A DNA stretch of 64,000 nt from a virus, in the IMG/VR virus record IMGVR_UViG_3300032316_000329, positions 32,001-96,000 of that record. The stretch is one strand, 5' to 3'. The translations under genes and the position numbers were made by a program. Below, one piece after another: positions 1-57,987 of the stretch. How positions within the stretch are numbered: the first letter of the stretch is position 1; the number at the start of each line of letters is the position of its first letter. Under the pieces are notes generated by a model. That model was not told where the DNA came from, did not search any database, and saw only the letters and a list, made by a program, of their open reading frames with translations.

Positions 1-42
1 GTCTGGATCTTCAGAAATTGCTCTAATATCAGGAGTGCTAAC

Positions 43-2749: not shown

Positions 2750-2773
2750 GAATATAAACCCATCGGAGGTCCA

Positions 2774-4411
2774 ATGTCAGTAGATTACATAGTCAACGAA
2801 CACCAAATTTTACCGGAGGGTAATGTTAGGGGTTCAGCAGTATTCGATGTTACAATGGTGGCCACCTCCGATGGGCAACTCGTTACAAATACTAATCCTC
2901 TACCCGTTACCCTCGGCAACTCAGCTATTCAAATTACCTCTAATAATGTCAATGTTACTGTTCCAAATACTATTACGGTAAACTCATCAACTAATGATCC
3001 AATTCACGTTCATATTACTGAAGTCGGGGCAAGCGGTAATCTACAGTTTTCTTACATGCCTATTGGTGGTAACGTCAGTATCTTCCAAAGCACAGGTGCT
3101 GCTATCAATACAGCAAATCCTCTACCGGTCACCGCTGCTATTACAGGCACAGTAACCTCCACTCCAGTAGCAGGCGCATCTGATGCTTTTGGTAGGTTGA
3201 GAACCTCAGATGGATTTACTCTTGGTGACTATAAACACACATATGGTATTGATCCAAACTTCATTGATGAATTTGGTCCTGGTGCTAATGTCATTCACAT
3301 ATCTAATCAAGCAGCAGCCAGATTATCAACAAACAATAGCCCAAGCAGTTATGCTATTCACCAGACGAAACAATATCACAACTATATGCCTGGTAAAAGT
3401 CAGCTAATCAAATCAACAATCAATTTCTATAATGCTACTGCTAACGTAACAAAGAGAACCGGTTACTTTGATGCTAACAATGGTATCTACTTTGAGCAAG
3501 CAGGCAATAGCACATTAAGTCTGGTTATTAGATCGGATACAAGTGGCACAATCACAGAACGCAGAGTACCACAAGCACAATGGAATATGGATACTTGTAA
3601 TACATCCATCACTGGTACTGTAACAGGTAACGTTGGTAGTTTTAATCTTGATATCAGCAATACACAAATCTTCTGGACCGATTTTCAATGGCTCGGTGTT
3701 GGTCGTGTAAGAACAGGTTTCGTACATAATGGTAATCTAATTGTAGCACATGAGTTCTATAACAGCAATTTCTTACCAACCGTTTATATGAGTAATCCTA
3801 ATCTACCAGTTCGTTGTGAGATTAGAAACACTGGTGCCACCACTGGTGCTTACTTTGACCAAATTTGTGCCACTGTTATTTCAGAAGGTGGATATGTTGA
3901 GAGTGGTATTGACTGGGCTATTACAACAGGTAGTGCGGCACAATCAGTAACAACAGCAAGCGGTAACTATCCTCTTATAGCAATTCGTCTAAAGAATAAC
4001 TTTAGAACATATCCAAACAGAGTTACCGTTCGTATGGGCAATATAAATGTGTATGCTGAAAACTATCCAGCATATTGGAAACTTATTAAGTTAGCCAATA
4101 CTGCCGGTATAACGCTTGCTAACACAACATGGATTAGTGCTGATACCGACTCAGCAGTTGAGTATAATCTAACAGGAACTGCTATGGTGGGTGGTGATGA
4201 GATGGATAATGGTATTGTTGGCACAAGCAGTCCTGGTGGTTCCGCTAAAGGTACAGGAACATCACCTGTCAATAATCCAAGTAGTGCCAAGAAAAACTTT
4301 ATTGCTCAAAACATCGCATCATCCAACTCTGAAATATATGTAGTTGCTATTCAAGCGATTGGCGGAACATCCGATGTATGGGCAGGCATTCAATGGAGAG
4401 AGATTTACTAA
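2774..4411 (+). CDS. putative virion structural protein (beta-rich, lectin-like)
   Basis: Thr/Asn/Ser-rich, two NPLPV motifs, SDAFGRLR motif, late promoter and GGAGG RBS. Confidence 0.55.
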   Translation: MSVDYIVNEHQILPEGNVRGSAVFDVTMVATSDGQLVTNTNPLPVTLGNSAIQITSNNVNVTVPNTITVNSSTNDPIHVHITEVGASGNLQFSYMPIGGNVSIFQSTGAAINTANPLPVTAAITGTVTSTPVAGASDAFGRLRTSDGFTLGDYKHTYGIDPNFIDEFGPGANVIHISNQAAARLSTNNSPSSYAIHQTKQYHNYMPGKSQLIKSTINFYNATANVTKRTGYFDANNGIYFEQAGNSTLSLVIRSDTSGTITERRVPQAQWNMDTCNTSITGTVTGNVGSFNLDISNTQIFWTDFQWLGVGRVRTGFVHNGNLIVAHEFYNSNFLPTVYMSNPNLPVRCEIRNTGATTGAYFDQICATVISEGGYVESGIDWAITTGSAAQSVTTASGNYPLIAIRLKNNFRTYPNRVTVRMGNINVYAENYPAYWKLIKLANTAGITLANTTWISADTDSAVEYNLTGTAMVGGDEMDNGIVGTSSPGGSAKGTGTSPVNNPSSAKKNFIAQNIASSNSEIYVVAIQAIGGTSDVWAGIQWREIY

Positions 4412-4413
4412 GG

Positions 4414-4442
4414 TTGACAACTATATATTTGGAGTATATAAT
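4414..4442 (+). promoter_or_regulatory. sigma70 early promoter
   Basis: perfect TTGACA-N17-TATAAT. Confidence 0.85.
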
Positions 4443-4481
4443 GGACGAAACAGTTGAGGAAGACTTTGATGTTGGATGTTA

Positions 4482-5162
4482 ATGAAAACTTTTAATCATG
4501 TAAACACCCAAAAATCTTTATGTGAACTGAATAGAGAAGAATATAATGGAAAACGATACTATGTCTCTCCAAACGGCATCAAATTACCATCCGTCACAAC
4601 TTTTTTATCGCATTTCAAAGGCGACTCCATCCTCAAATGGAGGAAAAAAGTGGGGGAAGAAGAAGCGAATAAAATATCAGCAAGAGCAAGTAGAAGAGGT
4701 ACAAAATTTCATTCGCTTATGGAATCTTATATCTCTAATCAGGAAAGGGATAGTTTTCTGAATGAAAACGTGATGCCTGATATGGTTCAGGCCTTTAATC
4801 AGTTTATTCCTATTCTTGACAGGGTTGATAATGTTCACTATTTGGAAACTATGCTCTATTCTGAAACACTCGGTCTTGCTGGCCAAGTGGACTGTATTGC
4901 CGAGTTTGATGGTATTCCTTCTATCATTGACTTTAAAACTTCTCTAAAACCTAAGAAAGAGGAATGGATTCTCAATTACTTTGAGCAATGTACCTGTTAT
5001 TCTTTGATGTATGAAGAAATGACTGGTGTGCAGGCCAAACAGATTGTGGTTCTTATATCAGTAGACCATGAAGAACCGCAGGTGTTTGTTAAGAGTCGTA
5101 GAGAATACATTCCTGAACTGGCCAATAAGGTCAAACAGTTTAAATCGGAGCATAATTTATGA
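4482..5162 (+). CDS. PD-(D/E)XK exonuclease (cyanophage-type)
   Basis: LPSVTT, RGTKFH, AGQVDCIAE, IIDFKTS motifs; start at 4476 or 4482. Confidence 0.85.
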   Translation: MKTFNHVNTQKSLCELNREEYNGKRYYVSPNGIKLPSVTTFLSHFKGDSILKWRKKVGEEEANKISARASRRGTKFHSLMESYISNQERDSFLNENVMPDMVQAFNQFIPILDRVDNVHYLETMLYSETLGLAGQVDCIAEFDGIPSIIDFKTSLKPKKEEWILNYFEQCTCYSLMYEEMTGVQAKQIVVLISVDHEEPQVFVKSRREYIPELANKVKQFKSEHNL

Positions 5163-5275
5163 AATACTTCCTACTAATAATGGTGTTTCTTTGTCTTGGC
5201 TTGTCTGGTTGCCATGAAGCCCTCGTCATCGGTGATTGCGCTATACGGGGTTCAACTAAAAATCCATGCAAATAA
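5159..5275 (+). CDS. 38-aa putative lipoprotein (not in ORF track)
   Basis: MKYFLLIMVFLCLGLSGCHEALVIGDCAIRGSTKNPCK; Lys + hydrophobic core + lipobox LSGC; ATGA coupling to the exonuclease stop. Confidence 0.6.
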   Translation: MKYFLLIMVFLCLGLSGCHEALVIGDCAIRGSTKNPCK

Positions 5276-5344
5276 TGGTTCAACAGACCATCGTGGTGTT
5301 GCTGCACCACAAATGGAAGAGTTTGAGAACCAAGTAGAATAAAC

Positions 5345-5375
5345 TTGCCAAAAATTTCAATATATGTTATAAATA
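5345..5375 (+). promoter_or_regulatory. overlapping sigma70 and T4-late promoter for the tmRNA
   Basis: TTGCCA-N17-TATAAA with TGn extension; the -10 box is also TATAAATA (5368-5375). Confidence 0.65.
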
Positions 5376-5380
5376 TATCT

Positions 5381-5622
5381 GCTTAGGTCGTTGAGAGACG
5401 TAGAATAAGCGGAAGAGACCTCGGGGCGGTACCGAGCGGGTCCACCATAAGCACATTAAGGTATGTTTAATTGGGCCCGAAATAGGATTGATCTACGTGG
5501 TAAAGGCGTAAGGAGACCGAAAGCAAACGTTAGGTGCCAACGATAACATTGCACCATTTGATATTGCTCTAGCAGCATAATCATTGGGCTGGTGACTTGC
5601 CTAGAAACAGAAAAGTCACACC
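5381..5622 (+). ncRNA. ssrA: two-piece (circularly permuted) tmRNA, alphaproteobacterial type; tag ANDNIAPFDIALAA
   Basis: T-arm CTCGG-GGCGGTA-CCGAG; 3' acceptor strand CGGGTCC-A-CCA (CCA 5445-5447) precedes the 5' strand GGGCCCG (5473-5479) giving G3.U70; GAAATAGGATTGA D-loop analog; tag ORF 5536-5580 ending ALAA-stop; inter-piece pairings ACGTAGA/TCTACGT and GCTTAGGTC/GACCGAAAGC. Confidence 0.92.
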
Positions 5623-5669
5623 TTTTCCATCACTGTGTTTTACCGCACATGCAAAATTGACTCTTCCAT

Positions 5670-5677
5670 ACTAAATA
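5670..5677 (+). promoter_or_regulatory. late promoter variant ACTAAATA
   Basis: recurring intergenic motif upstream of a small ORF. Confidence 0.45.
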
Positions 5678-5702
5678 ATTTTGTAAGAAACAGGAGAGAG
5701 TT

Positions 5703-5804
5703 ATGATTACCTTACTAAAAACCACCTTGACAGTTCTAGTAGTTTCTGCTATAATCTTTCCTGTAATGACACTTGCCGCACACGCACAAGTCATTTTCTG
5801 CTAA
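5703..5804 (+). CDS. 33-aa hydrophobic/signal-peptide-like microprotein (not in ORF track)
   Basis: AGGAGAG RBS; MITLLKTTLTVLVVSAIIFPVMTLAAHAQVIFC. Confidence 0.45.
   Translation: MITLLKTTLTVLVVSAIIFPVMTLAAHAQVIFC
5727..5755 (+). promoter_or_regulatory. sigma70 early promoter for gp33-gp59
   Basis: perfect TTGACA-N17-TATAAT with TGn extended -10. Confidence 0.85.
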
Positions 5805-5820
5805 TACATAGGACTATATT

Positions 5821-6045
5821 ATGACAACTGATGAAATCAATAACTTTTCCATGGCCATAGAGGAACTTGTCTATATGAAGGACGTTCCTTATATTGATGC
5901 AATTGTTATGTATTGTGAAGAAACAGGATTTGAAGTTGAAATGGCCGCCAAACTGGTCTCTGGTGTTCTAAAATCCAAAATTAGAATTGAAGCGGAAGAC
6001 CTTCACTATATCGCAAAGTCAAACACCTCAAAACTACCAATCTAA
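5821..6045 (+). CDS. gp33: late-promoter transcription co-activator
   Basis: FSxxIEELV...YIDAIVxYCEE...LKSKIxxEA; synteny with gp59-gp32. Confidence 0.85.
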   Translation: MTTDEINNFSMAIEELVYMKDVPYIDAIVMYCEETGFEVEMAAKLVSGVLKSKIRIEAEDLHYIAKSNTSKLPI

Positions 6046-6048
6046 ACT

Positions 6049-6660
6049 ATGAAACATTTCACCGGATATGGTGCTTATCTATTGTTCTTGGCATTAAGAA
6101 CCCATTTCACTAATGCCAAGTATGATTTCTTTCAAATGCATGGTAAACTCCGTGCAACAAAGGAGTCTTATATAAAACGCAATGATAAGTCCTTCTTTGA
6201 CAAACTGGCCAGAGATTATTCCTGTGAGAATTTGAGAGACTTTTATGTTGCCAACTTTCTTGAAGATAAACACTATGTAACGGAGTTATTAGATGATACC
6301 GCCGAACGAAACTACCGAGAATATCAGAGAAGAAGGCAGTCCCTCACATATATCTTTACCAGCGAATTGGAGGAGTTATTTGATAGTGGTATTACAAGGC
6401 CTTTTAAATTTAACGATGGCGAGTATCCTGATATTGTCAATCTGTATCTTAGGCATGTCCTCTCTCCCGAAACTCTGGTAATCATAAACGATTTTATACC
6501 CTTTGAGGATAAGTTTAATAAATACCTTAGTGATGATATATTATGGTCTAAGGTATCGTTGAAACTTAGAAAATATAAACCATTCGTTCATTATGATAGG
6601 AATAAGGTGAAATCTATCCTCAAGGAGAAATTACATGATACTAGAGGGAGAAGCATCTGA
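6049..6660 (+). CDS. gp59: helicase loader
   Basis: YLLFLALRTHFT...YDFF...KRNDKSFFDKL; position between gp33 and gp32. Confidence 0.85.
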   Translation: MKHFTGYGAYLLFLALRTHFTNAKYDFFQMHGKLRATKESYIKRNDKSFFDKLARDYSCENLRDFYVANFLEDKHYVTELLDDTAERNYREYQRRRQSLTYIFTSELEELFDSGITRPFKFNDGEYPDIVNLYLRHVLSPETLVIINDFIPFEDKFNKYLSDDILWSKVSLKLRKYKPFVHYDRNKVKSILKEKLHDTRGRSI

Positions 6661-47222: not shown

Positions 47223-47884
47223 TGGCCAACACAGTAATCCAATTAAAGAAATCTGCGGTACCAACAGCACAACCGAATGCGGGGTCGTTAGCTAATGGTG
47301 AACTTGCTATTAACTATGCTGACGGTAAACTCTTCTATAAAGATTCCTCAGGCCTTATACAACAAATTTCTAGTGGTGGTAATACATTTTCTACCATCAA
47401 TGCTGCTGGTACATTGCTTGTTTCAGACTTACCTGGTGATATTCTAACAATTGACCAAGGTGATAATATCATCATTGTTCCTGAACCACTTAATGATAAA
47501 CTAACTATTTCGGCCAATCTATCGCCTGCCAACAATTACGCCGGGGCTATGGCCAACTCGGTCAATGCCTACACATCAACAACATATTCTACACTAACAC
47601 AATTTGGTTCTGTATTTGGTGTTGCTAATGCAGCGTTTGATAAGGCTAATACAGGATCAACAAATGTAAATACGTTTTCGTCTATTGCTGTTGCTGGTCA
47701 AGGTACCATATTAGCCTCATTGGAAGATACTCTAAACTTATCAGATGGTAATGGTATAAATATACAGACAGATCCGGTTACAAAAACAGTTTCATTTGGT
47801 ATAGTGCCAGGTACATATTCGGGAGATTACGGATTAATAACAGAACCGGTTAATATGATACACGACTACGGGGGTCTAGGATAA
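47222..47884 (+). CDS. tail fibre segment protein
   Basis: MANTVIQLKKS...LANGELAINYADGKLFYKD; ends DYG...DYGGLG. Confidence 0.7.
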   Translation: MANTVIQLKKSAVPTAQPNAGSLANGELAINYADGKLFYKDSSGLIQQISSGGNTFSTINAAGTLLVSDLPGDILTIDQGDNIIIVPEPLNDKLTISANLSPANNYAGAMANSVNAYTSTTYSTLTQFGSVFGVANAAFDKANTGSTNVNTFSSIAVAGQGTILASLEDTLNLSDGNGINIQTDPVTKTVSFGIVPGTYSGDYGLITEPVNMIHDYGGLG

Positions 47885-50499
47885 TGTCCGTTCAGGTACA
47901 AATAAGAAGAGGTAATACAGCTCAAACTTCGGCATTTACCGGTGCTGTTGCTGAAATTACCGTCGATACAGATAAACAAACATTAGTTGTTCATAACGGA
48001 TCAAAGTCTGGTGGATTTCCTCTTGCTCCTAATACCGCTTTTGATGTCGCCAATGCTGCTTTCAACTCCGCAAACAATGTAGCACCTCAGGTTGCCCCCT
48101 CTTTTAATACTGCTAATGCTGCCTTTGATAAGGCCAATTCGGCCAATGTCCTTGCCTATAATACAGGTATTGGTGCAAATGCTTATACTGTATCCGTAGG
48201 TTCATCCGGTAATAATTATGCTGGTGCTATGGCCAACAGCATTAACGCATACACTACTGCCACTTATGCTACTCAAACAGATTTAAGTACCGGTCTCTCT
48301 GCTGGTAATACTTATACAGTTTCCGTTGGAACGAGTGCTAATAATTATGCAGGCGCAATGGCGAATGCCGCCAATGCATATGCAACGGCAACTTACGAAA
48401 CTCAAATTGTAGTATCAACCGGTCTTGCTTCTGGTAATGCTTATGCTAATTTTGTTGGAACGTCAGCAAACTCTTATGCCAATACTTCTACGGAAGCGGC
48501 AAATAACTATGCCGGATTTATGGCAAACGCATCCAATGCCTATGCTGCTTCATTAACACCAGATTTATCTCCGGCATTTAACAAGGCAAACGATGCCTAT
48601 ACACAGGCAAATGCTGCCTATTCCCATGCCAATGATGTGGCAACAGGTGCCAATGCCTATTCCGTTTCTGTTGGCGCCGCTGGTAATGCTTATGTTAATC
48701 TATCTACTGGTGCTGCAAATTCTTATACCGTAACAGTCGGTACATCTGCCAATAATTATGCCGGTGTTATGGCAAACTCAGCAAACGGAATTGCTGATGC
48801 TACTTACATCAAAAAAACTGCAACTACACAGATAATAACCGGTGATATACAGATTACTGGTAATTTGATACTATCTGGTAATGCTACCCAGATTTCTGCT
48901 AACAATCTGTCTATCCAGGATCCTCTTATATTCCTTGCCACAAACAATATCAGCGACATTGTTGATATTGGATTTATAGGTCATTATAACAATGGTTCCG
49001 CAAACGTTCATACAGGTGTCTATAGAGACCACGCATCTAAAGAATATTATATATTCAATGGTCTATTCGGTGAACCAGAACTAGTCAATGATATTGTTCC
49101 ATATGCTAACAATATGGTTAACGCCGTTCTTAATGCTGATTTAAGAACCAGTAATCTAAATCTTGGTGGTGCTAATGCTATTGTTTGGATTAGATCAGCA
49201 TATGATAACTCTAATGCTGCGTATAACAATGCTAATTCAATTGCCACTTCTGCCAATAATTATGCAGGAGCAATGGCTAATGCGGCTAATGCTTATGCAT
49301 CGTCTTTAACGCCAGATTTAACTCCAGCATTTAATAAGGCAAACGATGCCTATACTATTGCTAACGGAGCATTTGATAAGGCCAATTCTGCCAATGTTCT
49401 TGCTTATAATACAGGAATTGGTAGTAATGCTTATACTAATGTAGTAGGAACATCCGCAAATAACTATGCTGGTGCTATGGCTAATTCTGCCAATGCATAT
49501 GCTCTTTCATTAACACCAGATTTATCTCCTGCTTTTAATGTTGCTAATGGAGCCTTTAACAAGGCAAACTCTGCTAATGTATTGGCCAAGGCAGCATATG
49601 ATTATGCTAATACAATTACAGGCGGTGCTGTTGTTTCAGCAACAGCACCTTCATCACCTTCTGCGGGTTCATTTTGGTGGAATACTACTTATGGTAGACT
49701 ATTTGTTTATTACAATGATGGTAATACATCTCAATGGGTTGATGCTACTGCTACTGCTACTGCTGCAAGAGTAGTAACTACTGATACCGTACCAAACGGT
49801 GCGGTGGACGGACAACTTTGGTGGAACTCAGAATACGGTAGATTGTTTGTCTATTATAATGACGGTGATACTAGTCAATGGGTTGACACCAATCCTGCTA
49901 CGGATATTGGTGGTATAACGGACATTGCAAATGCTGCTTTTGATAAGGCTAATACAGGTGCCACCTTTGCTTATGTAAATACTTCTGCGGCCGCAGCAAA
50001 TGCTTATACCAATGTTTCAACAGGTGCTGCTAATGCTTATACCAATGTTTCAACAGGTGCTGCTAATGCTTATACCAATGTTTCTACGGCCGCGGCAAAT
50101 AATTGGGCAAACACAAAATTAGCAAACACAAATGTCGTCCTTGCTGGCAATTTAACATCTACACAAGGTGTTGCTGATAGGATAGGTGATGTAAGAAACT
50201 TACCAATTGTAAATCAAACATCATCATATACACTAACACTTGCTGATAATGGTGAGGTTATTTCTTTAACAACTGGTAACGTTTTTGTTACTGCTGGCAT
50301 ATTTTTTCCAGGTAATACTGTTTCTGTGTTTAACAATTCATCGGCAAATATAACCATCACACAGAATACCAGTGTTACATTGTATTCCGCTGGTACTTCT
50401 AATACTGGTAATAGAATCTTGCAGCAAAGAGGTATTGCTACAATCGTTTGCGTTGCTGCAAATACATTTGTTGTTACAGGTGCGGGTATGGTTCCATGA
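47884..50499 (+). CDS. long tail fibre shaft protein (Mtd-N-like N-terminus)
   Basis: QVQIRRGNTAQ...FTGAVAEITVDTDK..LVVHNG; Asn/Ala repeats; two WWNxxYGRLFVYYNDG domains. Confidence 0.8.
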   Translation: MSVQVQIRRGNTAQTSAFTGAVAEITVDTDKQTLVVHNGSKSGGFPLAPNTAFDVANAAFNSANNVAPQVAPSFNTANAAFDKANSANVLAYNTGIGANAYTVSVGSSGNNYAGAMANSINAYTTATYATQTDLSTGLSAGNTYTVSVGTSANNYAGAMANAANAYATATYETQIVVSTGLASGNAYANFVGTSANSYANTSTEAANNYAGFMANASNAYAASLTPDLSPAFNKANDAYTQANAAYSHANDVATGANAYSVSVGAAGNAYVNLSTGAANSYTVTVGTSANNYAGVMANSANGIADATYIKKTATTQIITGDIQITGNLILSGNATQISANNLSIQDPLIFLATNNISDIVDIGFIGHYNNGSANVHTGVYRDHASKEYYIFNGLFGEPELVNDIVPYANNMVNAVLNADLRTSNLNLGGANAIVWIRSAYDNSNAAYNNANSIATSANNYAGAMANAANAYASSLTPDLTPAFNKANDAYTIANGAFDKANSANVLAYNTGIGSNAYTNVVGTSANNYAGAMANSANAYALSLTPDLSPAFNVANGAFNKANSANVLAKAAYDYANTITGGAVVSATAPSSPSAGSFWWNTTYGRLFVYYNDGNTSQWVDATATATAARVVTTDTVPNGAVDGQLWWNSEYGRLFVYYNDGDTSQWVDTNPATDIGGITDIANAAFDKANTGATFAYVNTSAAAANAYTNVSTGAANAYTNVSTGAANAYTNVSTAAANNWANTKLANTNVVLAGNLTSTQGVADRIGDVRNLPIVNQTSSYTLTLADNGEVISLTTGNVFVTAGIFFPGNTVSVFNNSSANITITQNTSVTLYSAGTSNTGNRILQQRGIATIVCVAANTFVVTGAGMVP
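49999..50084 (+). repeat. 33-bp tandem repeat (about 2.6 copies) encoding NAYTNVSTGAA
   Basis: AATGCTTATACCAATGTTTCAACAGGTGCTGCT repeated. Confidence 0.9.
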
Positions 50500-52033: not shown

Positions 52034-52208
52034 TGCAAACACTACTTTTTTCTTAACCAAAGAAGAAGCACAAGAGAGATATAACATTTGTAAGCAATGT
52101 GATAGTTTTATACCTTTAACATCACAGTGTAAAGAATGTGGTTGTCTCATGAAAATAAAAGCAAAGATTAGAAATTCCGACTGTCCATTATCAAAATGGA
52201 AAAACTAA
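52020..52208 (+). CDS. small Cys-rich metal-binding protein
   Basis: RYNICKQC...QCKECGC...CPLSKW; start 52020 preferred. Confidence 0.6.
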   Translation: MISHDANTTFFLTKEEAQERYNICKQCDSFIPLTSQCKECGCLMKIKAKIRNSDCPLSKWKN

Positions 52209-52211
52209 ATA
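52204..52211 (+). promoter_or_regulatory. late promoter variant ACTAAATA
   Basis: 22 nt upstream of the fibre gene at 52233. Confidence 0.55.
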
Positions 52212-52232: not shown

Positions 52233-53237
52233 ATGGCAAAAATTAATTTTCCAAGTTCGCCAACTAATGGCCAAACATTCAATCAAAACGGAGTGTATTA
52301 TACATACGACTCTACTTTTGGTGCTTGGGTAACTGCTCTCGTTCCTAAACCTTTGGATAATAGCAGAAACACACAAATTATCTTTAATGATGCCACTTAT
52401 GCCAATGGTTCTAACGGTATGACTTTTAGTAAGTCTGCCAATACGGCATACCTTGCCAATGTAGCAGTTACACAGAATGTTTATGCCAACTATTTTATAG
52501 GTAATGGTGCCGCACTAACAGGTATTGTTACAGACTTTTCGCCAGCTTATAATACCGCTAATGGTGCCTATAATGTTGCCAATGGTGCCTATACGACCGC
52601 TAACGGTGGATATAATGTTGCCAATGCGGCCTTTGGCAGGGCCAACACCGCATTACAGAACACCTCAGGTACCGTATTTACTGGAAATTTCTTTGTTGCC
52701 AATAGCGTTGGTGTTGGTAGATCAACCACTGGTTATGCTCTTGATGTTGTTGGTACAGTTAATGCTTCGGCACTACTTATTAACGGAGCAGCCTTATCAG
52801 GTGGTGCCACTGTTTCCGATCAAACAACTTCCGCATCAACATTCTATCCTGTAATTACAACCACAACTAGTGGTACAATGTCTGTTGCGAATGTTTCAAC
52901 TACCAAACTCTACTTCGTTCCATCTACCGGTACATTATCAGCAACGGTGTTCAACTCATTATCCGATATCACATTAAAGACTGATATTGAAGAGATTAAC
53001 GGAATAGAACTAATAAATAAGATAAACCCAATAGGTTTCAGATGGAAAGAGAATGGCACAAAGTCTTATGGTGTTATTGCTCAGGAACTGGAACAAGTAT
53101 TGCCGGAGTTGGTTCAGACCAATGAAGGCCTTAAATCGGTTTCTTATACTCCTATGATTGCTATGTTGATTGATACTGTTAAGAAACAAGAAAAACGAAT
53201 AGAAAAACTTGAACAATTATTAAGTAATCAAAAGTAA
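52233..53237 (+). CDS. tail fibre protein with C-terminal peptidase S74 intramolecular chaperone
   Basis: FPSSPTNGQ N-terminus; SDITLKTDI...GVIAQELEQVLPELV...VSY followed by coiled coil. Confidence 0.85.
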   Translation: MAKINFPSSPTNGQTFNQNGVYYTYDSTFGAWVTALVPKPLDNSRNTQIIFNDATYANGSNGMTFSKSANTAYLANVAVTQNVYANYFIGNGAALTGIVTDFSPAYNTANGAYNVANGAYTTANGGYNVANAAFGRANTALQNTSGTVFTGNFFVANSVGVGRSTTGYALDVVGTVNASALLINGAALSGGATVSDQTTSASTFYPVITTTTSGTMSVANVSTTKLYFVPSTGTLSATVFNSLSDITLKTDIEEINGIELINKINPIGFRWKENGTKSYGVIAQELEQVLPELVQTNEGLKSVSYTPMIAMLIDTVKKQEKRIEKLEQLLSNQK

Positions 53238-53248
53238 CGGAATAAGAT

Positions 53249-54406
53249 ATGCCAAATTTTAATAGTCCAGAAGGCGAACTAACTGATCTGTTTATGACGG
53301 ATGTAAGTATCCTGGATAGTTTTGTTGGTAATGAGTTGTGGGGATGGGGACGTAATGGTTATGGACAACTTGGTGACAACACAAGAACCAAAAGATCCTC
53401 ACCAGTCCAGACCGTATCTGGTGGAACCAACTGGAAGTTCGTTGCTTGTGGTTTTAATTACACCACTACCATTAAAACAGATGGAACGTTGTGGTCGTGG
53501 GGAGGAAATAGTTATGGTCAACTAGGTGATAACTCCAGAACCCATAGATCCTCTCCAGTCCAAACTGTATCTGGTGGTACCAATTGGAAACTAGTTGCTT
53601 GTGGTAGTTATCACACCACTGCCATTAAAACAGATGGTACCCTTTGGACCTGGGGTCAGAGTATTTATGGTCAACTAGGTGATAACTCAACAAACAATAG
53701 ATCCTCACCAGTCCAGACCGTATCTGCTGGTACAAATTGGAAACAAGTTGCTGGTGGTTTCAATCACACCACTGCCATTAAAACAGATGGTACATTATGG
53801 ACATGGGGAGGTAATGGTTATGGTCAACTAGGTGATAACTCAACAACCAGTAGATCCTCACCAGTTCAGACCGTATCTGCTGGTACCAATTGGAAACAGG
53901 TTGCTTGTGGTCAACACACTGCCGCCATCAAAACAGATGGTACATTATGGTTGTGGGGACGTAATGAATACGGTGCACTAGGTGATAATACAACAACCAA
54001 TAGATCCTCACCAGTCCAAACCGTATCTGGTGGAACCAACTGGAAACAAGTTGCTGGTGGTATTTACCACACCGCTGCCATTAAGACTGATGGAACCCTT
54101 TGGACCTGGGGATATAATACTGACGGTCAACTAGGTGACAATACAACAACCGATAGATCCTCACCAGTCCAAACCGTATCTGGTGGTACCAACTGGAAAC
54201 AGGTTGCTGGTGGTCGGTTTAACACTGCTGCCATTAAAACTGATGGTACATTGTGGGGATGGGGACGTAATACTGACGGTCAACTAGGTGATAACTCCAT
54301 AACCCATAGATCCTCACCGGTCCAGACTGTATCTAGTGGAACCAACTGGAAACTGGTTGCTGGTGGTAGTTATCACACTGCTGCCGTAACCTATACAGAA
54401 TCATAA
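53249..54406 (+). CDS. RCC1-repeat beta-propeller (7 repeats)
   Basis: 7 x ~50-aa GTLWxWGxNxxGQLGDN...SSPVQT...WKxVAxG..HTAAIKTD. Confidence 0.92.
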   Translation: MPNFNSPEGELTDLFMTDVSILDSFVGNELWGWGRNGYGQLGDNTRTKRSSPVQTVSGGTNWKFVACGFNYTTTIKTDGTLWSWGGNSYGQLGDNSRTHRSSPVQTVSGGTNWKLVACGSYHTTAIKTDGTLWTWGQSIYGQLGDNSTNNRSSPVQTVSAGTNWKQVAGGFNHTTAIKTDGTLWTWGGNGYGQLGDNSTTSRSSPVQTVSAGTNWKQVACGQHTAAIKTDGTLWLWGRNEYGALGDNTTTNRSSPVQTVSGGTNWKQVAGGIYHTAAIKTDGTLWTWGYNTDGQLGDNTTTDRSSPVQTVSGGTNWKQVAGGRFNTAAIKTDGTLWGWGRNTDGQLGDNSITHRSSPVQTVSSGTNWKLVAGGSYHTAAVTYTES

Positions 54407-54423
54407 TAAGAGGAAACAAAAAG

Positions 54424-55089
54424 ATGTTTGTAATCGTTCAAGACAATTTTGTAATAGATGGACCAAGGGATTGGAACAAGAAGAAGTTTGAAGAAGTTCT
54501 TTTAGAAGATTGTGAAGTAGATTTCACACTTGAAACCAGAAACGAATCCAACCTTCCAATCGTTGTTTCCGACACTGTTAAGATTCTTCCGGTAACCAAA
54601 CTTCCTGATCCAGTATTTAATTCCAAGACACAGATTCTTCAAGGGCCATTCTGGAACCTATCAGACACATTGGCCGAAGAATATTACACCGCGCAAGATA
54701 TGCCAGTGGATGCTGTTAAGAACTTTCTTACCTCTATTGTTGCTAATGCTCGGTATATTAAAGAAACTGCTGGTATTAAAATGACTATTCAAGGAACTCA
54801 GGTTTCTGTTGATACTGCTCGTGGTTCAAGAGATATATTCTTTCAGGCATTTTTATCTATTGGTGAAACTGAAACAATGAACTGGAAGTTTCCTGAGACC
54901 TGGTTAGAACTCACAAAGAGTGATCTGGGTTTGATTGTTTCTGCGGGTCGTAACCATATTCAGACATCTTTTGATTGGGAGAATGGTTGGGTCAATAGAG
55001 TTAGTGCTGCTGTTACATTGAATGATCTTAATACACTTTATAATGAACTGGAAGCGGAATTAAAACCACAGACAAATCCAACAGTATAA
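54424..55089 (+). CDS. DUF4376-like tail-associated chaperone
   Basis: ARYIKETAGI...DTARGSR...NWKF...IQTSFDWE. Confidence 0.6.
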   Translation: MFVIVQDNFVIDGPRDWNKKKFEEVLLEDCEVDFTLETRNESNLPIVVSDTVKILPVTKLPDPVFNSKTQILQGPFWNLSDTLAEEYYTAQDMPVDAVKNFLTSIVANARYIKETAGIKMTIQGTQVSVDTARGSRDIFFQAFLSIGETETMNWKFPETWLELTKSDLGLIVSAGRNHIQTSFDWENGWVNRVSAAVTLNDLNTLYNELEAELKPQTNPTV

Positions 55090-55098
55090 GGTCGTATA

Positions 55099-56316
55099 AT
55101 GGCATATGGTTCAAATACAAATTATACTATTAGTGGTGTTGATGTAGGTAGACAACTTGTAACTAAAAGTTACTTGATTGATGTTTATCCATCTTTGGTT
55201 GGTACGTTTAAACAGGCAGGGTTATGGACCTGGGGGCGTAATGGTGCCGGTCAACTAGGTGACAATACAACAACCGGTAGATCATCTCCAGTTCAAACTG
55301 TATCTGGTGGTACAAATTGGAAACTGGTTGCTGGTGGTGGTTATCACACTGCTGCCATTAAGACTGATGGAACCCTATGGACCTGGGGAGGTAATTCTTA
55401 CGGTGCACTAGGCGACAATTCAACAAACTTTAGATCCTCACCAGTCCAGACTGTATCTGCTGGTACAAATTGGAAACAGGTTGCTTGTGGTTTTTTTCAC
55501 ACTGCTGCTATTAAGACTGATGGAACGTTATGGTTATGGGGAGATAATAGAAACGGTCAACTAGGTGACAATACAACAGCCCATAGATCCTCTCCAGTCC
55601 AAACTGTATCTAGTGGAACTAACTGGAAACTGGTTGCTAGTGGTCGTTATCACACCGCTGCCATTAAAACCGACGGAACCCTTTGGACCTGGGGAGCTAA
55701 TTATTCCGGTCAACTAGGTGACAATTCAACAAACCGTAAATCCTCACCAGTCCAGACCGTATCTGGAGGAACCAACTGGAAACTGGTTGCTTGTGGTGGT
55801 TTTCACAATGCTGCCATTAAAACTGATGGAACCCTTTGGACCTGGGGAGCTAATTATGCCGGTAATCTAGGTGATAACTCAATAACCAGTAAATCCTCAC
55901 CAGTCCAAACCGTATCTACTGGTACAAATTGGAAACTGGTTGCTGGTGGTAGTAGTCACACCTCTGCCATTAAGACTGATGGAACCCTATGGACCTGGGG
56001 ACATAATGGTTACGGTACACTAGGTGATAACTCCAGAACCCATAGATCCTCACCAGTCCAGACCGTATCTGGAGGAACCAACTGGAAACTGGTTGCTTGT
56101 GGTGGTTTTCACAATGCTGCCATTAAGACTGATGGAACCCTTTGGACCTGGGGATTTAATGCTTACGGTGCACTAGGTGATAACTCCGAAACCCGTAGAT
56201 CCTCACCAGTCCAAACCGTATCTGGTGGAACCAACTGGAAACAAGTTGCTGTTGGTGGTTATTACACTGCCTGTATCCGTGACGATTCAGCAGACATTTT
56301 CGGAAACACTATATGA
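55099..56316 (+). CDS. RCC1-repeat beta-propeller (7 repeats)
   Basis: same repeat consensus as 53249. Confidence 0.92.
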   Translation: MAYGSNTNYTISGVDVGRQLVTKSYLIDVYPSLVGTFKQAGLWTWGRNGAGQLGDNTTTGRSSPVQTVSGGTNWKLVAGGGYHTAAIKTDGTLWTWGGNSYGALGDNSTNFRSSPVQTVSAGTNWKQVACGFFHTAAIKTDGTLWLWGDNRNGQLGDNTTAHRSSPVQTVSSGTNWKLVASGRYHTAAIKTDGTLWTWGANYSGQLGDNSTNRKSSPVQTVSGGTNWKLVACGGFHNAAIKTDGTLWTWGANYAGNLGDNSITSKSSPVQTVSTGTNWKLVAGGSSHTSAIKTDGTLWTWGHNGYGTLGDNSRTHRSSPVQTVSGGTNWKLVACGGFHNAAIKTDGTLWTWGFNAYGALGDNSETRRSSPVQTVSGGTNWKQVAVGGYYTACIRDDSADIFGNTI

Positions 56317-56819
56317 TCCATCCTCTTGTGAAGATTATAACCATTGATGGTTTTTTTAGTCAAGAAGAGGCCACCAGATTAGGTGAAATAACCAGAAACC
56401 TTCAATACACTCAAAACCAATTAGGTCAAGAGATAGAACATTTCAATATGGTTCCAGAAAACGCCAATGAAATGTTCTCTTTCATTCTAAATACAAAGAT
56501 AGAGGTGGATGAAGATCGTTCAGGTATATTCAGAAAGCCAGAGTTATTCATACACTTTGAGGAATTTGATACTCTTGATGAATGGGTTTTTGTTTGTGTT
56601 CTGGAACATACTATGTTTAATATATATCAGCACGAAAGCGGTGCCAAGAGTGCTTTGGATGGGTATCAGTTTAATTACAGGAACCTTATGGAATGGGGTT
56701 CTAATACAAAAGTTTCCTATGAACTATTGCCTGGAGAAGGCGTTCTGTTTAGACCGTGGTTGTTTCATTCGTTTAGTGGTGGTTTAATTCAGATATTCAG
56801 ATTAAAAGAGAGAGAATAG
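56313..56819 (+). CDS. putative 2OG-Fe(II) oxygenase-fold protein (DUF6445-like)
   Basis: IxIDGFF start, IHFE, VLFRPWLFHS. Confidence 0.55.
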   Translation: MIHPLVKIITIDGFFSQEEATRLGEITRNLQYTQNQLGQEIEHFNMVPENANEMFSFILNTKIEVDEDRSGIFRKPELFIHFEEFDTLDEWVFVCVLEHTMFNIYQHESGAKSALDGYQFNYRNLMEWGSNTKVSYELLPGEGVLFRPWLFHSFSGGLIQIFRLKERE

Positions 56820-57971
56820 ATGCCAACTTTTTATCAGGTTAACGGTGTATCGTTTGATGATCTGTTTGTAAGAAATGATTCATTCACAGAAGGTGGGTTG
56901 TGGACCTGGGGAAATAATGGTCTGGGTGAATTAGGTGATAACTCCAGAACCCATAGATCATCTCCAGTCCAAACCGTATCTGCTGGTACAAATTGGAAAC
57001 AGGTTGCTGGTGGTGGTAATCACACCGCTGCCATTAAAACTGATGGAACATTATGGTTATGGGGTAGTAATTTTTTTGGCCGATTAGGTGACAATACACA
57101 AACCGATAGATCCTCACCAGTTCAAACTGTATCTGCTGGTACAAATTGGAAACAGGTTGCTTGTGGTGGTACTCATACCGCTGCCATTAAGACTGACGGA
57201 ACCCTATGGACATGGGGACGTAATTATAATGGCCGATTAGGTGACAATACAACAACCGATACAACCTCACCAGTCCAAACCGTATCTGCTGGTACAAATT
57301 GGAAACAGGTTGCTTGTGGTGGTAATCACACCGCTGCCATTAAGACTGATGGAACCCTTTGGACCTGGGGACGTAATACTAACGGTCAACTAGGTGATAA
57401 CTCTTTAACCCATAGATCCTCACCAGTTCAAACTGTATCTGGAGGAACCAATTGGAAACAAGTTGCTGGTGGCGATAGTCATACTGCTGCCGTTAAAACT
57501 GATGGAACATTATGGATGTGGGGAGGCAATAGTTATGGTCAACTAGGTGATAACTCTTTAACCCATAGATCCTCACCAGTTCAAACTGTATCTGCTGGTA
57601 CAAATTGGAAGTTTGTTGCCAGTGGATATTATGCACATACTGCTGCCATTAAGACTGATGGAACCCTATGGACATGGGGACGTAATAATTTCGGTCAACT
57701 AGGTGATAACTCTTTAACCCATAGATCCTCACCAGTTCAAACTGTATCTGGTGGTGCCAATTGGAAACAAGTTTCTTGTGGTCGTTTTTACACAACTACC
57801 ATTAAAACTGATGGAACCCTGTGGACATGGGGACGTAATAGTTATGGTCAACTAGGTGATAATACAACAACCGGTAGATCATCACCAGTCCAAACCGTAT
57901 CTGCTGGTACAAATTGGAAACTAGTTGCTTGTGGCACTTATTTTACCGTCTCCATCCGAGATCAGTGGTAA
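56820..57971 (+). CDS. RCC1-repeat beta-propeller (7 repeats)
   Basis: same repeat consensus as 53249. Confidence 0.92.
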   Translation: MPTFYQVNGVSFDDLFVRNDSFTEGGLWTWGNNGLGELGDNSRTHRSSPVQTVSAGTNWKQVAGGGNHTAAIKTDGTLWLWGSNFFGRLGDNTQTDRSSPVQTVSAGTNWKQVACGGTHTAAIKTDGTLWTWGRNYNGRLGDNTTTDTTSPVQTVSAGTNWKQVACGGNHTAAIKTDGTLWTWGRNTNGQLGDNSLTHRSSPVQTVSGGTNWKQVAGGDSHTAAVKTDGTLWMWGGNSYGQLGDNSLTHRSSPVQTVSAGTNWKFVASGYYAHTAAIKTDGTLWTWGRNNFGQLGDNSLTHRSSPVQTVSGGANWKQVSCGRFYTTTIKTDGTLWTWGRNSYGQLGDNTTTGRSSPVQTVSAGTNWKLVACGTYFTVSIRDQW

Positions 57972-57979
57972 TTTACAAG

Positions 57980-57987
57980 ACTAAATA
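57980..57987 (+). promoter_or_regulatory. late promoter variant ACTAAATA for the modification operon
   Basis: intergenic, immediately upstream of the methyltransferase. Confidence 0.55.

Follow-up and report, generated by a model that had tools for sequence, protein, structure and literature searches.

Targets of diversity-generating retroelements (DGRs), such as Mtd of the Bordetella phage BPP-1, are fibre-associated proteins in which the scaffold is constant and a few codons are scrambled but keep their third base, which gives these codons an NNY look (N, any base; Y, pyrimidine). The gp38 adhesins of T-even phages have conserved glycine-rich motifs that frame hypervariable segments, and they show neither internal repeats nor concerted evolution. 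The subject of the present analysis is a set of three genes for RCC1-type propellers, RCC1-A, RCC1-B and RCC1-C, found in a 64,000-nucleotide stretch of viral DNA, here called the window, which corresponds to bases 32001-96000 of the 165,114-bp virus record IMGVR_UViG_3300032316_000329 (CheckV completeness 99%). The 21 propeller blades encoded by these genes combine a genome-specific scaffold with a few hypervariable codons, and this combination is probably explained by selection on one binding face of fibre-module propellers whose blades evolve in concert, without a DGR.

In fungi, the WD40 repeats of the HNWD genes of Podospora anserina (het-d, het-e) evolve in concert and have few positively selected codons on the interaction face (PMC1805685). 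Other fungal NOD-like receptor (NLR) repeats with "high internal conservation" evolve in the same way (PMC4986451). In mechanism these fungal repeats come closest to the phage propellers. The phage propellers resemble these proteins in that propeller repeats evolve in concert within and between genes and contain few fast codons per repeat, and the evolutionary mechanism is probably the same. The phage proteins differ from the fungal NLRs in that they consist of RCC1 and not WD40 repeats, are viral, lie in a fibre module and have a blade number fixed at seven; repeat-induced point mutation (RIP) is not applicable to them. Because Pfam finds no NACHT or NB-ARC domain in the propeller proteins, only RCC1-type domains, and because the repeat type is another one, the phage propellers are not members of the fungal NLR class. 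Unlike the DGR target Mtd of BPP-1, they carry the variation over 21 repeats instead of in one C-terminal variable region, have columns fixed as NNA and adopt a different fold. What the propellers have in common with gp38 is that, in a fibre-associated protein of T4-like phages, hypervariable loops are set in a conserved framework, but gp38 and the window proteins are not homologous.

Among cultured phages, the nearest relative is the freshwater Synechococcus phage S-SRM01 (Kyanoviridae, NC_070963), whose RCC1 proteins are 60% identical to those of the window and follow the distal long-tail-fibre gene in the same gene order. The paper that describes S-SRM01 (PMC8557907) mentions neither RCC1 nor DGRs nor propellers, and the same is true of the paper on large pmoC-carrying phages (PMC7674155). 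Phage phAPEC6 has 11 RCC1-like genes, for which a function in DNA organisation is proposed, and its description contains no analysis of repeats or hypervariability (PMC7247149). In the literature searched, phage RCC1 genes are merely annotated or are given a speculative role in DNA organisation or condensation, and no report that links RCC1-like proteins of bacteriophages with receptor binding was found. An Ostreococcus virus paper that matches "RCC1" is irrelevant, as the term stands there for culture-collection strain numbers.

Propeller fold and hypervariable columns

Three RCC1 propellers had been recognised in a preliminary description made from the DNA letters alone, and this identification stands. 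Each open reading frame consists of seven units of 49-52 codons that start with W-x-W-G, and Pfam PF00415 matches seven stretches in each. The genes and the starts of their blades are as follows:

53249-54406, plus strand: RCC1-A, seven-bladed propeller of 385 amino acids (Pfam RCC1, E-value 3.9e-77, 7 repeats; WD40_RLD, E-value 1.9e-93), with blades starting at 53339, 53492, 53645, 53798, 53948, 54101 and 54254
55099-56316, plus strand: RCC1-B, seven-bladed propeller of 405 amino acids (Pfam RCC1, E-value 4.7e-74, 7 repeats), with blades starting at 55225, 55378, 55531, 55684, 55837, 55990 and 56143
56820-57971, plus strand: RCC1-C, seven-bladed propeller of 383 amino acids (Pfam RCC1, E-value 1.5e-80, 7 repeats; WD40_RLD, E-value 5.3e-97), with blades starting at 56901, 57054, 57207, 57360, 57513, 57669 and 57822

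The model PF25390, which describes the RCC1-like domain (RLD), matches the three proteins with E-values from 1e-82 to 5e-97. An AlphaFold2 model of RCC1-B, made with a 48-sequence alignment of relatives, has 28 strands, a predicted local distance difference test score (pLDDT) of 86.5 and a predicted template modelling score (pTM) of 0.84. A Foldseek search with this model finds UVR8, the RLDs of HERC2 and HERC1, RPGR and RCC1 at template modelling (TM) scores of 0.79-0.91, and phmmer searches against solved RLDs give E-values from 1e-58 to 1e-27. The three proteins belong to the RLD superfamily, with seven repeats, four strands per blade and a seven-bladed fold. They share with UVR8, the HERC1/HERC2 RLDs, RPGR and RCC1 this fold, 25-29% identity and the motifs G-x-x-H-T, W-x-W-G and G-Q-L-G. 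Unlike the blades of these cellular RLDs, the phage blades are far less diverged from each other and carry a hypervariable ring, and no role as a Ran guanine-nucleotide exchange factor or as a photoreceptor is expected for them.

The scaffold consensus of the family, taken from the 48-protein alignment, is W-x-W-G-x-N-x-x-G-x-L-G-D-N-T-x-x-x-[KR]-S-S-P-V-Q-T. With columns numbered from the W-x-W-G start, the model of RCC1-B divides the blade into the following predicted elements:

Columns -1 to 4: strand C
Columns 5-18: C-D loop, 14 residues
Columns 19-24: strand D
Columns 25-31: D-A loop
Columns 32-37: strand A
Columns 38-40: A-B turn
Columns 42-46: strand B
Columns 47-50: B-C turn

When the 21 blades, seven per gene, are aligned codon by codon, eight columns are hypervariable, six in the C-D loop (5, 7, 8, 10, 16 and 18) and two in the A-B turn (39 and 40). 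A set of 417 unique blades from 50 loci and the 48-protein alignment show hypervariability at these same columns. Tyr, Asn, Ser, Gly and Arg dominate them throughout the family (417 blades), as they do in many binding sites. By established propeller topology, the A-B and C-D connections of a four-stranded antiparallel blade point to one face, and they contain all eight hypervariable columns, whereas the B-C and D-A connections of the other face are nearly invariant. The variable residues, roughly 56 per propeller, would thus be gathered on one face of the predicted fold.

The alignment of the phage proteins to UVR8 (phmmer) places columns 5, 7 and 18 at W94, D96 and D107, and columns 39/40 at the residues W233/R234, W285/R286 and W337/R338 of the G-W-R-H-T motifs. 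In UVR8, salt bridges across the dimer interface link R286 to D96 and D107 (PMC5091643). Judged by this alignment, five of the eight variable columns coincide with the known interaction surface of UVR8.

The third bases of the variable codons follow a regular pattern, for which the codon counts given earlier are exact. Column 5 is NNY in 19 of 21 blades, column 7 also in 19 and column 8 in 20; a recount likewise gives NNC at column 8 in all 7 blades of RCC1-B and NNT at column 18 in 20/21 blades. The pattern was nevertheless described incompletely, since the NNA codons of columns 10 and 16 were overlooked together with columns 39 and 40, which vary as much as the columns that were listed. Among the codons of the six NNY columns that allow a choice, 54 of 58 end in a pyrimidine, where the codon usage of the genome predicts 35.3 (standard deviation about 3.6), so that the pyrimidine bias of these six columns exceeds codon usage. 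Columns 10 and 16 are hypervariable, yet they are NNA in 20/21 and 21/21 blades, and none of their 25 choice-allowing codons ends in a pyrimidine versus 12.4 expected. Arginine is encoded by CGT in column 5, by CGA in column 10 and by AGA in columns 16 and 19. Since A is retained at the hypervariable columns 10 and 16, what each column conserves is its own ancestral third base, which is not specifically a pyrimidine. In the set of 417 blades the third base is moderately biased (Y in 71-87%; A in 59% at column 16), with an entropy like that of scaffold third bases.

Concerted evolution and substitution pattern

The 21 blades had been called near-identical in DNA, but their mean pairwise identity is 79.9% (range 70-90%). 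Scaffold codons are 88% identical between blades, and at synonymous scaffold codons 72% of pairs agree. The scaffold is nonetheless specific to the genome: all 21 window blades carry T17, R19 and S27, and the related locus L001 has, across its three genes, V17 and A27 in most blades and K19 in about half of them. Nucleotide identity of the scaffold is 0.880 among window blades versus at most 0.781 to the blades of any other genome. Such an excess within the genome is also present in L001, L012, L013, L029 and L062, though not in every genome. The silent identity of the window blades shows no grouping (same gene 0.736 vs 0.717; same blade number 0.711). Positional orthologues exist, yet paralogous blades of the same genome are more alike than these orthologues, and therefore the 21 blades evolve in concert, both within and between genes. 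All 21 C-D loops are distinct, though the DNA that surrounds them is homogenised. Loop haplotypes of five codons recur across genes, namely SRTHR in blades A2, B6 and C1, and SLTHR in C4-C6.

Within the variable codons, the three positions behave differently. Pairwise differences at codon positions 1, 2 and 3 are 0.60, 0.57 and 0.20 at the eight variable columns versus 0.04, 0.02 and 0.24 in 29 scaffold columns. The third base of the variable codons thus diverges at the ordinary silent rate (0.20 vs 0.24), and positions 1-2 are near saturation. The Nei-Gojobori method gives for the eight variable columns a non-synonymous rate (dN) of 0.86 and a synonymous rate (dS) of 0.29, with a ratio of 2.9, and for the scaffold dN 0.023 and dS 0.45. 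This substitution pattern points to selection as its cause.

A comparison across the 15 genomes with at least 10 clean blades shows that the third-base divergence of variable codons tracks the silent divergence of the scaffold (r = 0.93, slope 1.25). In genomes with recently homogenised blades (the window, L013, L012 and L025), differences at positions 1-2 are 2-3 times as frequent as at position 3. In genomes with old blades (L010, L014, L015 and L062), all three positions are saturated, the ratio of positions 1-2 to position 3, which is 2.7-3.0 in homogenised genomes, has dropped to 1.0, and the NNY look is gone. The NNY pattern therefore behaves as a transient one.

Short-term change was followed in pairs of near-identical relatives, since the closest relative of the window in scans of viral and metagenome contigs reaches only 72-73% and megablast of the region against 50,697 phage records gives no match. 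The set comprises nine gap-free RCC1 gene pairs with 98.7-99.9% identity. Their differences are clustered: one stretch of 15 nt holds 8 of them, stretches of 47 and 59 nt hold 5 each, and the first 92 nt contain 15. In the five pairs with at least 99.3% identity, 13 codon differences are non-synonymous and 4 synonymous, and across all nine pairs the hypervariable columns, 20% of the blade, account for 9 of the 17 non-synonymous differences that lie within blades. L069 and L070, which come from sibling samples, have six differences in 15 kb, five of them within 59 bp of one blade (L069 6782-6840); these five all change amino acids (S>I, T>S, T>A, S>I), and some of the alleles are present in other blades, while others have no donor among the compared DNA. 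Patchy import by recombination is clear in these relatives. Templated micro-conversion between blades is not demonstrated, and the imported patches may derive from other blades or from other phages.

In L002 and L003, the third RCC1 protein is identical and genes 1 and 2 are strongly different in their loops; this contrast points to the exchange of whole propeller genes between lineages.

Retroelement, drift and selection as explanations

The preliminary description had proposed DGR-type mutagenesis, past or acting in trans, in which reverse transcription of a template introduces errors at adenines, AAY becomes NNY and gene conversion spreads the result. Such a process accords with the NNY codons of six variable columns, present in 90-95% of blades and more frequent than codon usage predicts. 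It fails all the tests applied here. The reverse transcriptase family RVT_1 has no member in the 165-kb genome, which is 99% complete, or in 19 related records, four of which reach at least 99%; the positive controls were matched. An additional repeat copy that could serve as a template, coding or not, is absent from the whole genome outside the three genes (blastn with word size 7, tblastn). Adenine is fixed in at least 20 of 21 blades at 22 nucleotide columns and is the minority base at scrambled positions, for example in 2/21 blades at position 1 of column 5. At columns 10 and 16 the third base stays A while positions 1-2 are scrambled, a state that adenine-directed mutagenesis would not produce. 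The divergence of the third base equals the silent background, and its fixity is lost in the relatives with older blades. Contigs of the same phage from different samples have RCC1 genes that are 100% identical (L003/L004/L005, L036-L041 and others), and some of the differences that separate close relatives are synonymous and lie at sites other than adenine. Finally, the variable codons are spread over all 21 RCC1 blades, and the fold is not of the C-type-lectin or immunoglobulin-like type of known DGR targets. Taken together, these results make a DGR origin extremely improbable, and by the terms that the preliminary description had itself set, the idea is essentially refuted. A protein with an Mtd_N domain, encoded about 3 kb upstream of RCC1-A, was considered as a further hint of a DGR. 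Mtd_N corresponds to the constant N-terminus of the BPP-1 Mtd fibre and not to its variable part, and this candidate was rejected, as the genome has no reverse transcriptase or template repeat. Hypervariability of the NNY kind, with the third base conserved, does not by itself identify a DGR, since repeats that were homogenised recently and are under strong selection show it too.

A second explanation dispenses with positive selection and supposes that the blades were recently amplified or homogenised and that unconstrained loop codons drift neutrally. The loops do lie outside the strands of the fold, and the variable columns were chosen after the fact, with noisy values per column. Under drift, however, the three codon positions should diverge alike, while in the window positions 1-2 differ 3 times more than position 3, or about 5 times after correction for multiple hits, and the same excess is found in the other recently homogenised genomes. 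The comparison of positions within a codon is independent of the choice of columns. Drift also fits poorly with 21 different C-D loops amid homogenised DNA, with a narrow, binding-site-like residue set led by Tyr, Asn, Ser, Gly and Arg, and with the non-synonymous excess between close relatives, and it is thus a rather improbable account.

Selection on one binding face, together with concerted evolution, would explain the same observations as follows. Copying between blades and genes, or repeated replacement by a common blade type, would keep the scaffold specific to the genome, while about eight codons per blade would resist homogenisation and gain amino-acid changes several times faster than silent ones. 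The NNY look would be a trace within the codon: the third base would still show what each column had ancestrally, A in two of them and T or C in the other six, positions 1-2 would already have been replaced under selection since homogenisation, and the pattern would fade as blades age. The resulting varied ligand-binding surface on or beside the tail fibre would serve host recognition. The earlier alternative of recombination with diversifying selection, producing binding faces at a fibre tip, is upheld by the concerted evolution, the amino-acid excess, the predicted location on one face and the fibre context with its fusions, and its "fibre tip" and "binding" parts are better worded as a probable placement and function. 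Several points weigh against this explanation. The dN/dS ratio comes from columns picked post hoc for their variability and from paralogous blades instead of a tree, and it could drop to about 1.2-2, since the proportion of synonymous differences per column (pS) is noisy (median 0.27, mean 0.41). The scarcity of purines at the third base also needs Tyr, Asn, Ser, Asp, His, Phe and Gly to be preferred over Lys, Glu and Gln, an effect that may be mixed with that of ancestry. The pairwise homoplasy index (PHI) test on the 21 blades gives no spatial signal of recombination inside the blade (p = 0.27), so that gene conversion is read only from the genome-specific scaffolds, and exact donor blades for the clustered patches between close relatives are found in only two small patches. 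The placement on one face is derived from propeller topology and from the UVR8 alignment, and outside the fold the stand-alone propellers have no more than 25-40 residues.

The propellers could also be variable binders that are not host-receptor adhesins, and that bind intracellular or defence proteins of the host, or assemble or decorate the phage's own fibres. This is an unlikely alternative, which draws on the stand-alone propellers without an obvious fibre-attachment domain, on the oxygenase-like gene interleaved with the propeller genes and the methyltransferase, tetratricopeptide repeat (TPR)/glycosyltransferase and sulfotransferase genes downstream, and on the RCC1-like arrays of the jumbo phage phAPEC6, which are discussed as possible DNA-organising proteins with function unknown (PMC7247149). 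Against it, the propellers are tightly packed among fibre genes in an apparent single late unit, the order of fibre, RCC1, DUF4376-like and RCC1 genes is conserved, and relatives have propellers fused to fibre-type parts. In L010, a single protein of 1117 amino acids (2766-6116, plus strand) comprises collagen triple-helix repeats (E-value 1e-54), an RCC1 propeller and a C-terminal S74 chaperone (E-value 4e-15), and by this domain order its propeller is built into a trimeric fibre. The propellers of L014 and L066 carry glycine-rich tails, of which the L066 tail has a weak GP38 match (E-value 1.5e-4, below the cut-off), and those of L021 and L064 have long N-terminal parts that are lectin-like by eye. 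Fibre-module placement and fusions of the L010 type tie the propellers to fibres. The propellers are most likely variable ligand-binding heads on or beside the tail fibre, that is, proteins of host recognition.

A more specific mechanism is possible, though doubtful, in which the 21 blades and those of co-infecting relatives form a library of cassettes, and short-patch gene conversion shuffles loop codons into new combinations on three fibre-displayed propellers. It would resemble immunoglobulin gene conversion or the fungal HNWD system, and if true it would amount to diversifying a viral host-recognition surface from templates without reverse transcriptase, and would supply a natural binder scaffold. 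If the propellers are host-binding heads, widespread T4-like lake phages, which include cyanophage relatives and pmoC carriers, would diversify host recognition by a route not described for phages. By this route, concerted evolution would keep the repeat scaffold uniform and fast residues would ring one face, with no retroelement involved. The 417 distinct blades from 50 loci also represent a natural library on one rigid scaffold, which is of possible interest for binder engineering.

Fibre gene module, genome and relatives

The window has a GC content of 38.8%, and PHROG matches to baseplate wedge and other tail proteins identify the genome as that of a T4-like myovirus; the phage is from a lake. 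The RCC1 genes lie in a compact block with a fibre gene, in which the gaps between genes range from -4 to 17 nt. The features around the propeller genes are as follows:

47884-50499, plus strand: Mtd_N-domain protein of 871 amino acids (Mtd_N, E-value 2.7e-12, at the N-terminus)
52205-52211, plus strand: CTAAATA, a late-promoter-like motif, 28 nt 5' of the start of the fibre gene (52233)
52233-53237, plus strand: short fibre protein of 334 amino acids with an S74 chaperone (Pfam Peptidase_S74, E-value 1.7e-14, C-terminal intramolecular chaperone domain)
54424-55089, plus strand: DUF4376-like gene, 221 amino acids (Pfam DUF4376, E-value 3.2e-5, just under the cut-off; phrog_10508 "tail fiber protein", E-value 4e-11)
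56313-56819, plus strand: gene for a protein of 168 amino acids, between RCC1-B and RCC1-C, with a start that overlaps the RCC1-B stop

The S74 fibre gene is separated from RCC1-A downstream by an 11-nt gap. It has a homologue in 54 of 70 related loci and adjoins the first RCC1 gene upstream in most of the 12 loci with coordinates. The DUF4376-like gene has a homologue in 62 of the 70 loci and occupies the same place after the first RCC1 gene in the 12 loci with coordinates; its product could be an adaptor or assembly partner. At 25-45% identity among loci, this protein is less conserved than the propellers. The 168-amino-acid protein matches no Pfam or PHROG family and has a homologue in 29/70 loci. 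Its structure neighbours in the ESM Atlas are DUF6445 and 2OG-FeII_Oxy_3/5 at TM scores of 0.69-0.75, which serve as a lead only, and on this structural likeness it is probably a 2-oxoglutarate (2OG)-Fe(II)-oxygenase-like protein of the DUF6445 type, which may modify the neighbouring propellers or fibres.

Upstream of the S74 fibre gene are genes for a glycine-rich protein and for the Mtd_N protein, and downstream of the RCC1 block are the methyltransferase, TPR/glycosyltransferase and sulfotransferase genes. By its position, the CTAAATA motif at 52205 may head a transcription unit with the RCC1 genes. A second CTAAATA is present at 57981-57987 on the plus strand, likewise 28 nt 5' of the start codon of the next unit (58009). 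The two copies bracket the fibre-RCC1 block like a pair of late promoters, which weakly suggests one late transcription unit. Neither CTAAATA (14 found vs 17 expected) nor TATAAATA is enriched in the window.

The same genome carries pmoC (AmoC family, E-value 9e-110) at 146363-147076, outside the window, a likeness to the large freshwater "pmoC-phages", which also have this gene (PMC7674155). The host, either a methanotroph or a cyanobacterium, is uncertain because pmoC is carried and the closest cultured relative of the RCC1 module is a freshwater cyanophage.

The gene order of fibre, RCC1, X, RCC1, Y and RCC1 is common to the window and its relatives. In S-SRM01, the long tail fiber protein distal subunit is followed by an RCC1 gene, a hypothetical gene, a second RCC1 gene, a TPR protein and a 2OG oxygenase, and further on by a third RCC1 gene, a sulfotransferase and a glycosyltransferase; the RCC1 genes are gp335, gp337 and gp344. 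Giant open reading frames of 1023-1995 amino acids with 13-24 RCC1 blades are found in L025, L046, L052, L061, L012, L022 and L029. Several of these giant relatives, of about 1160 amino acids, consist of three fused propellers, the same number that the window encodes as three genes.

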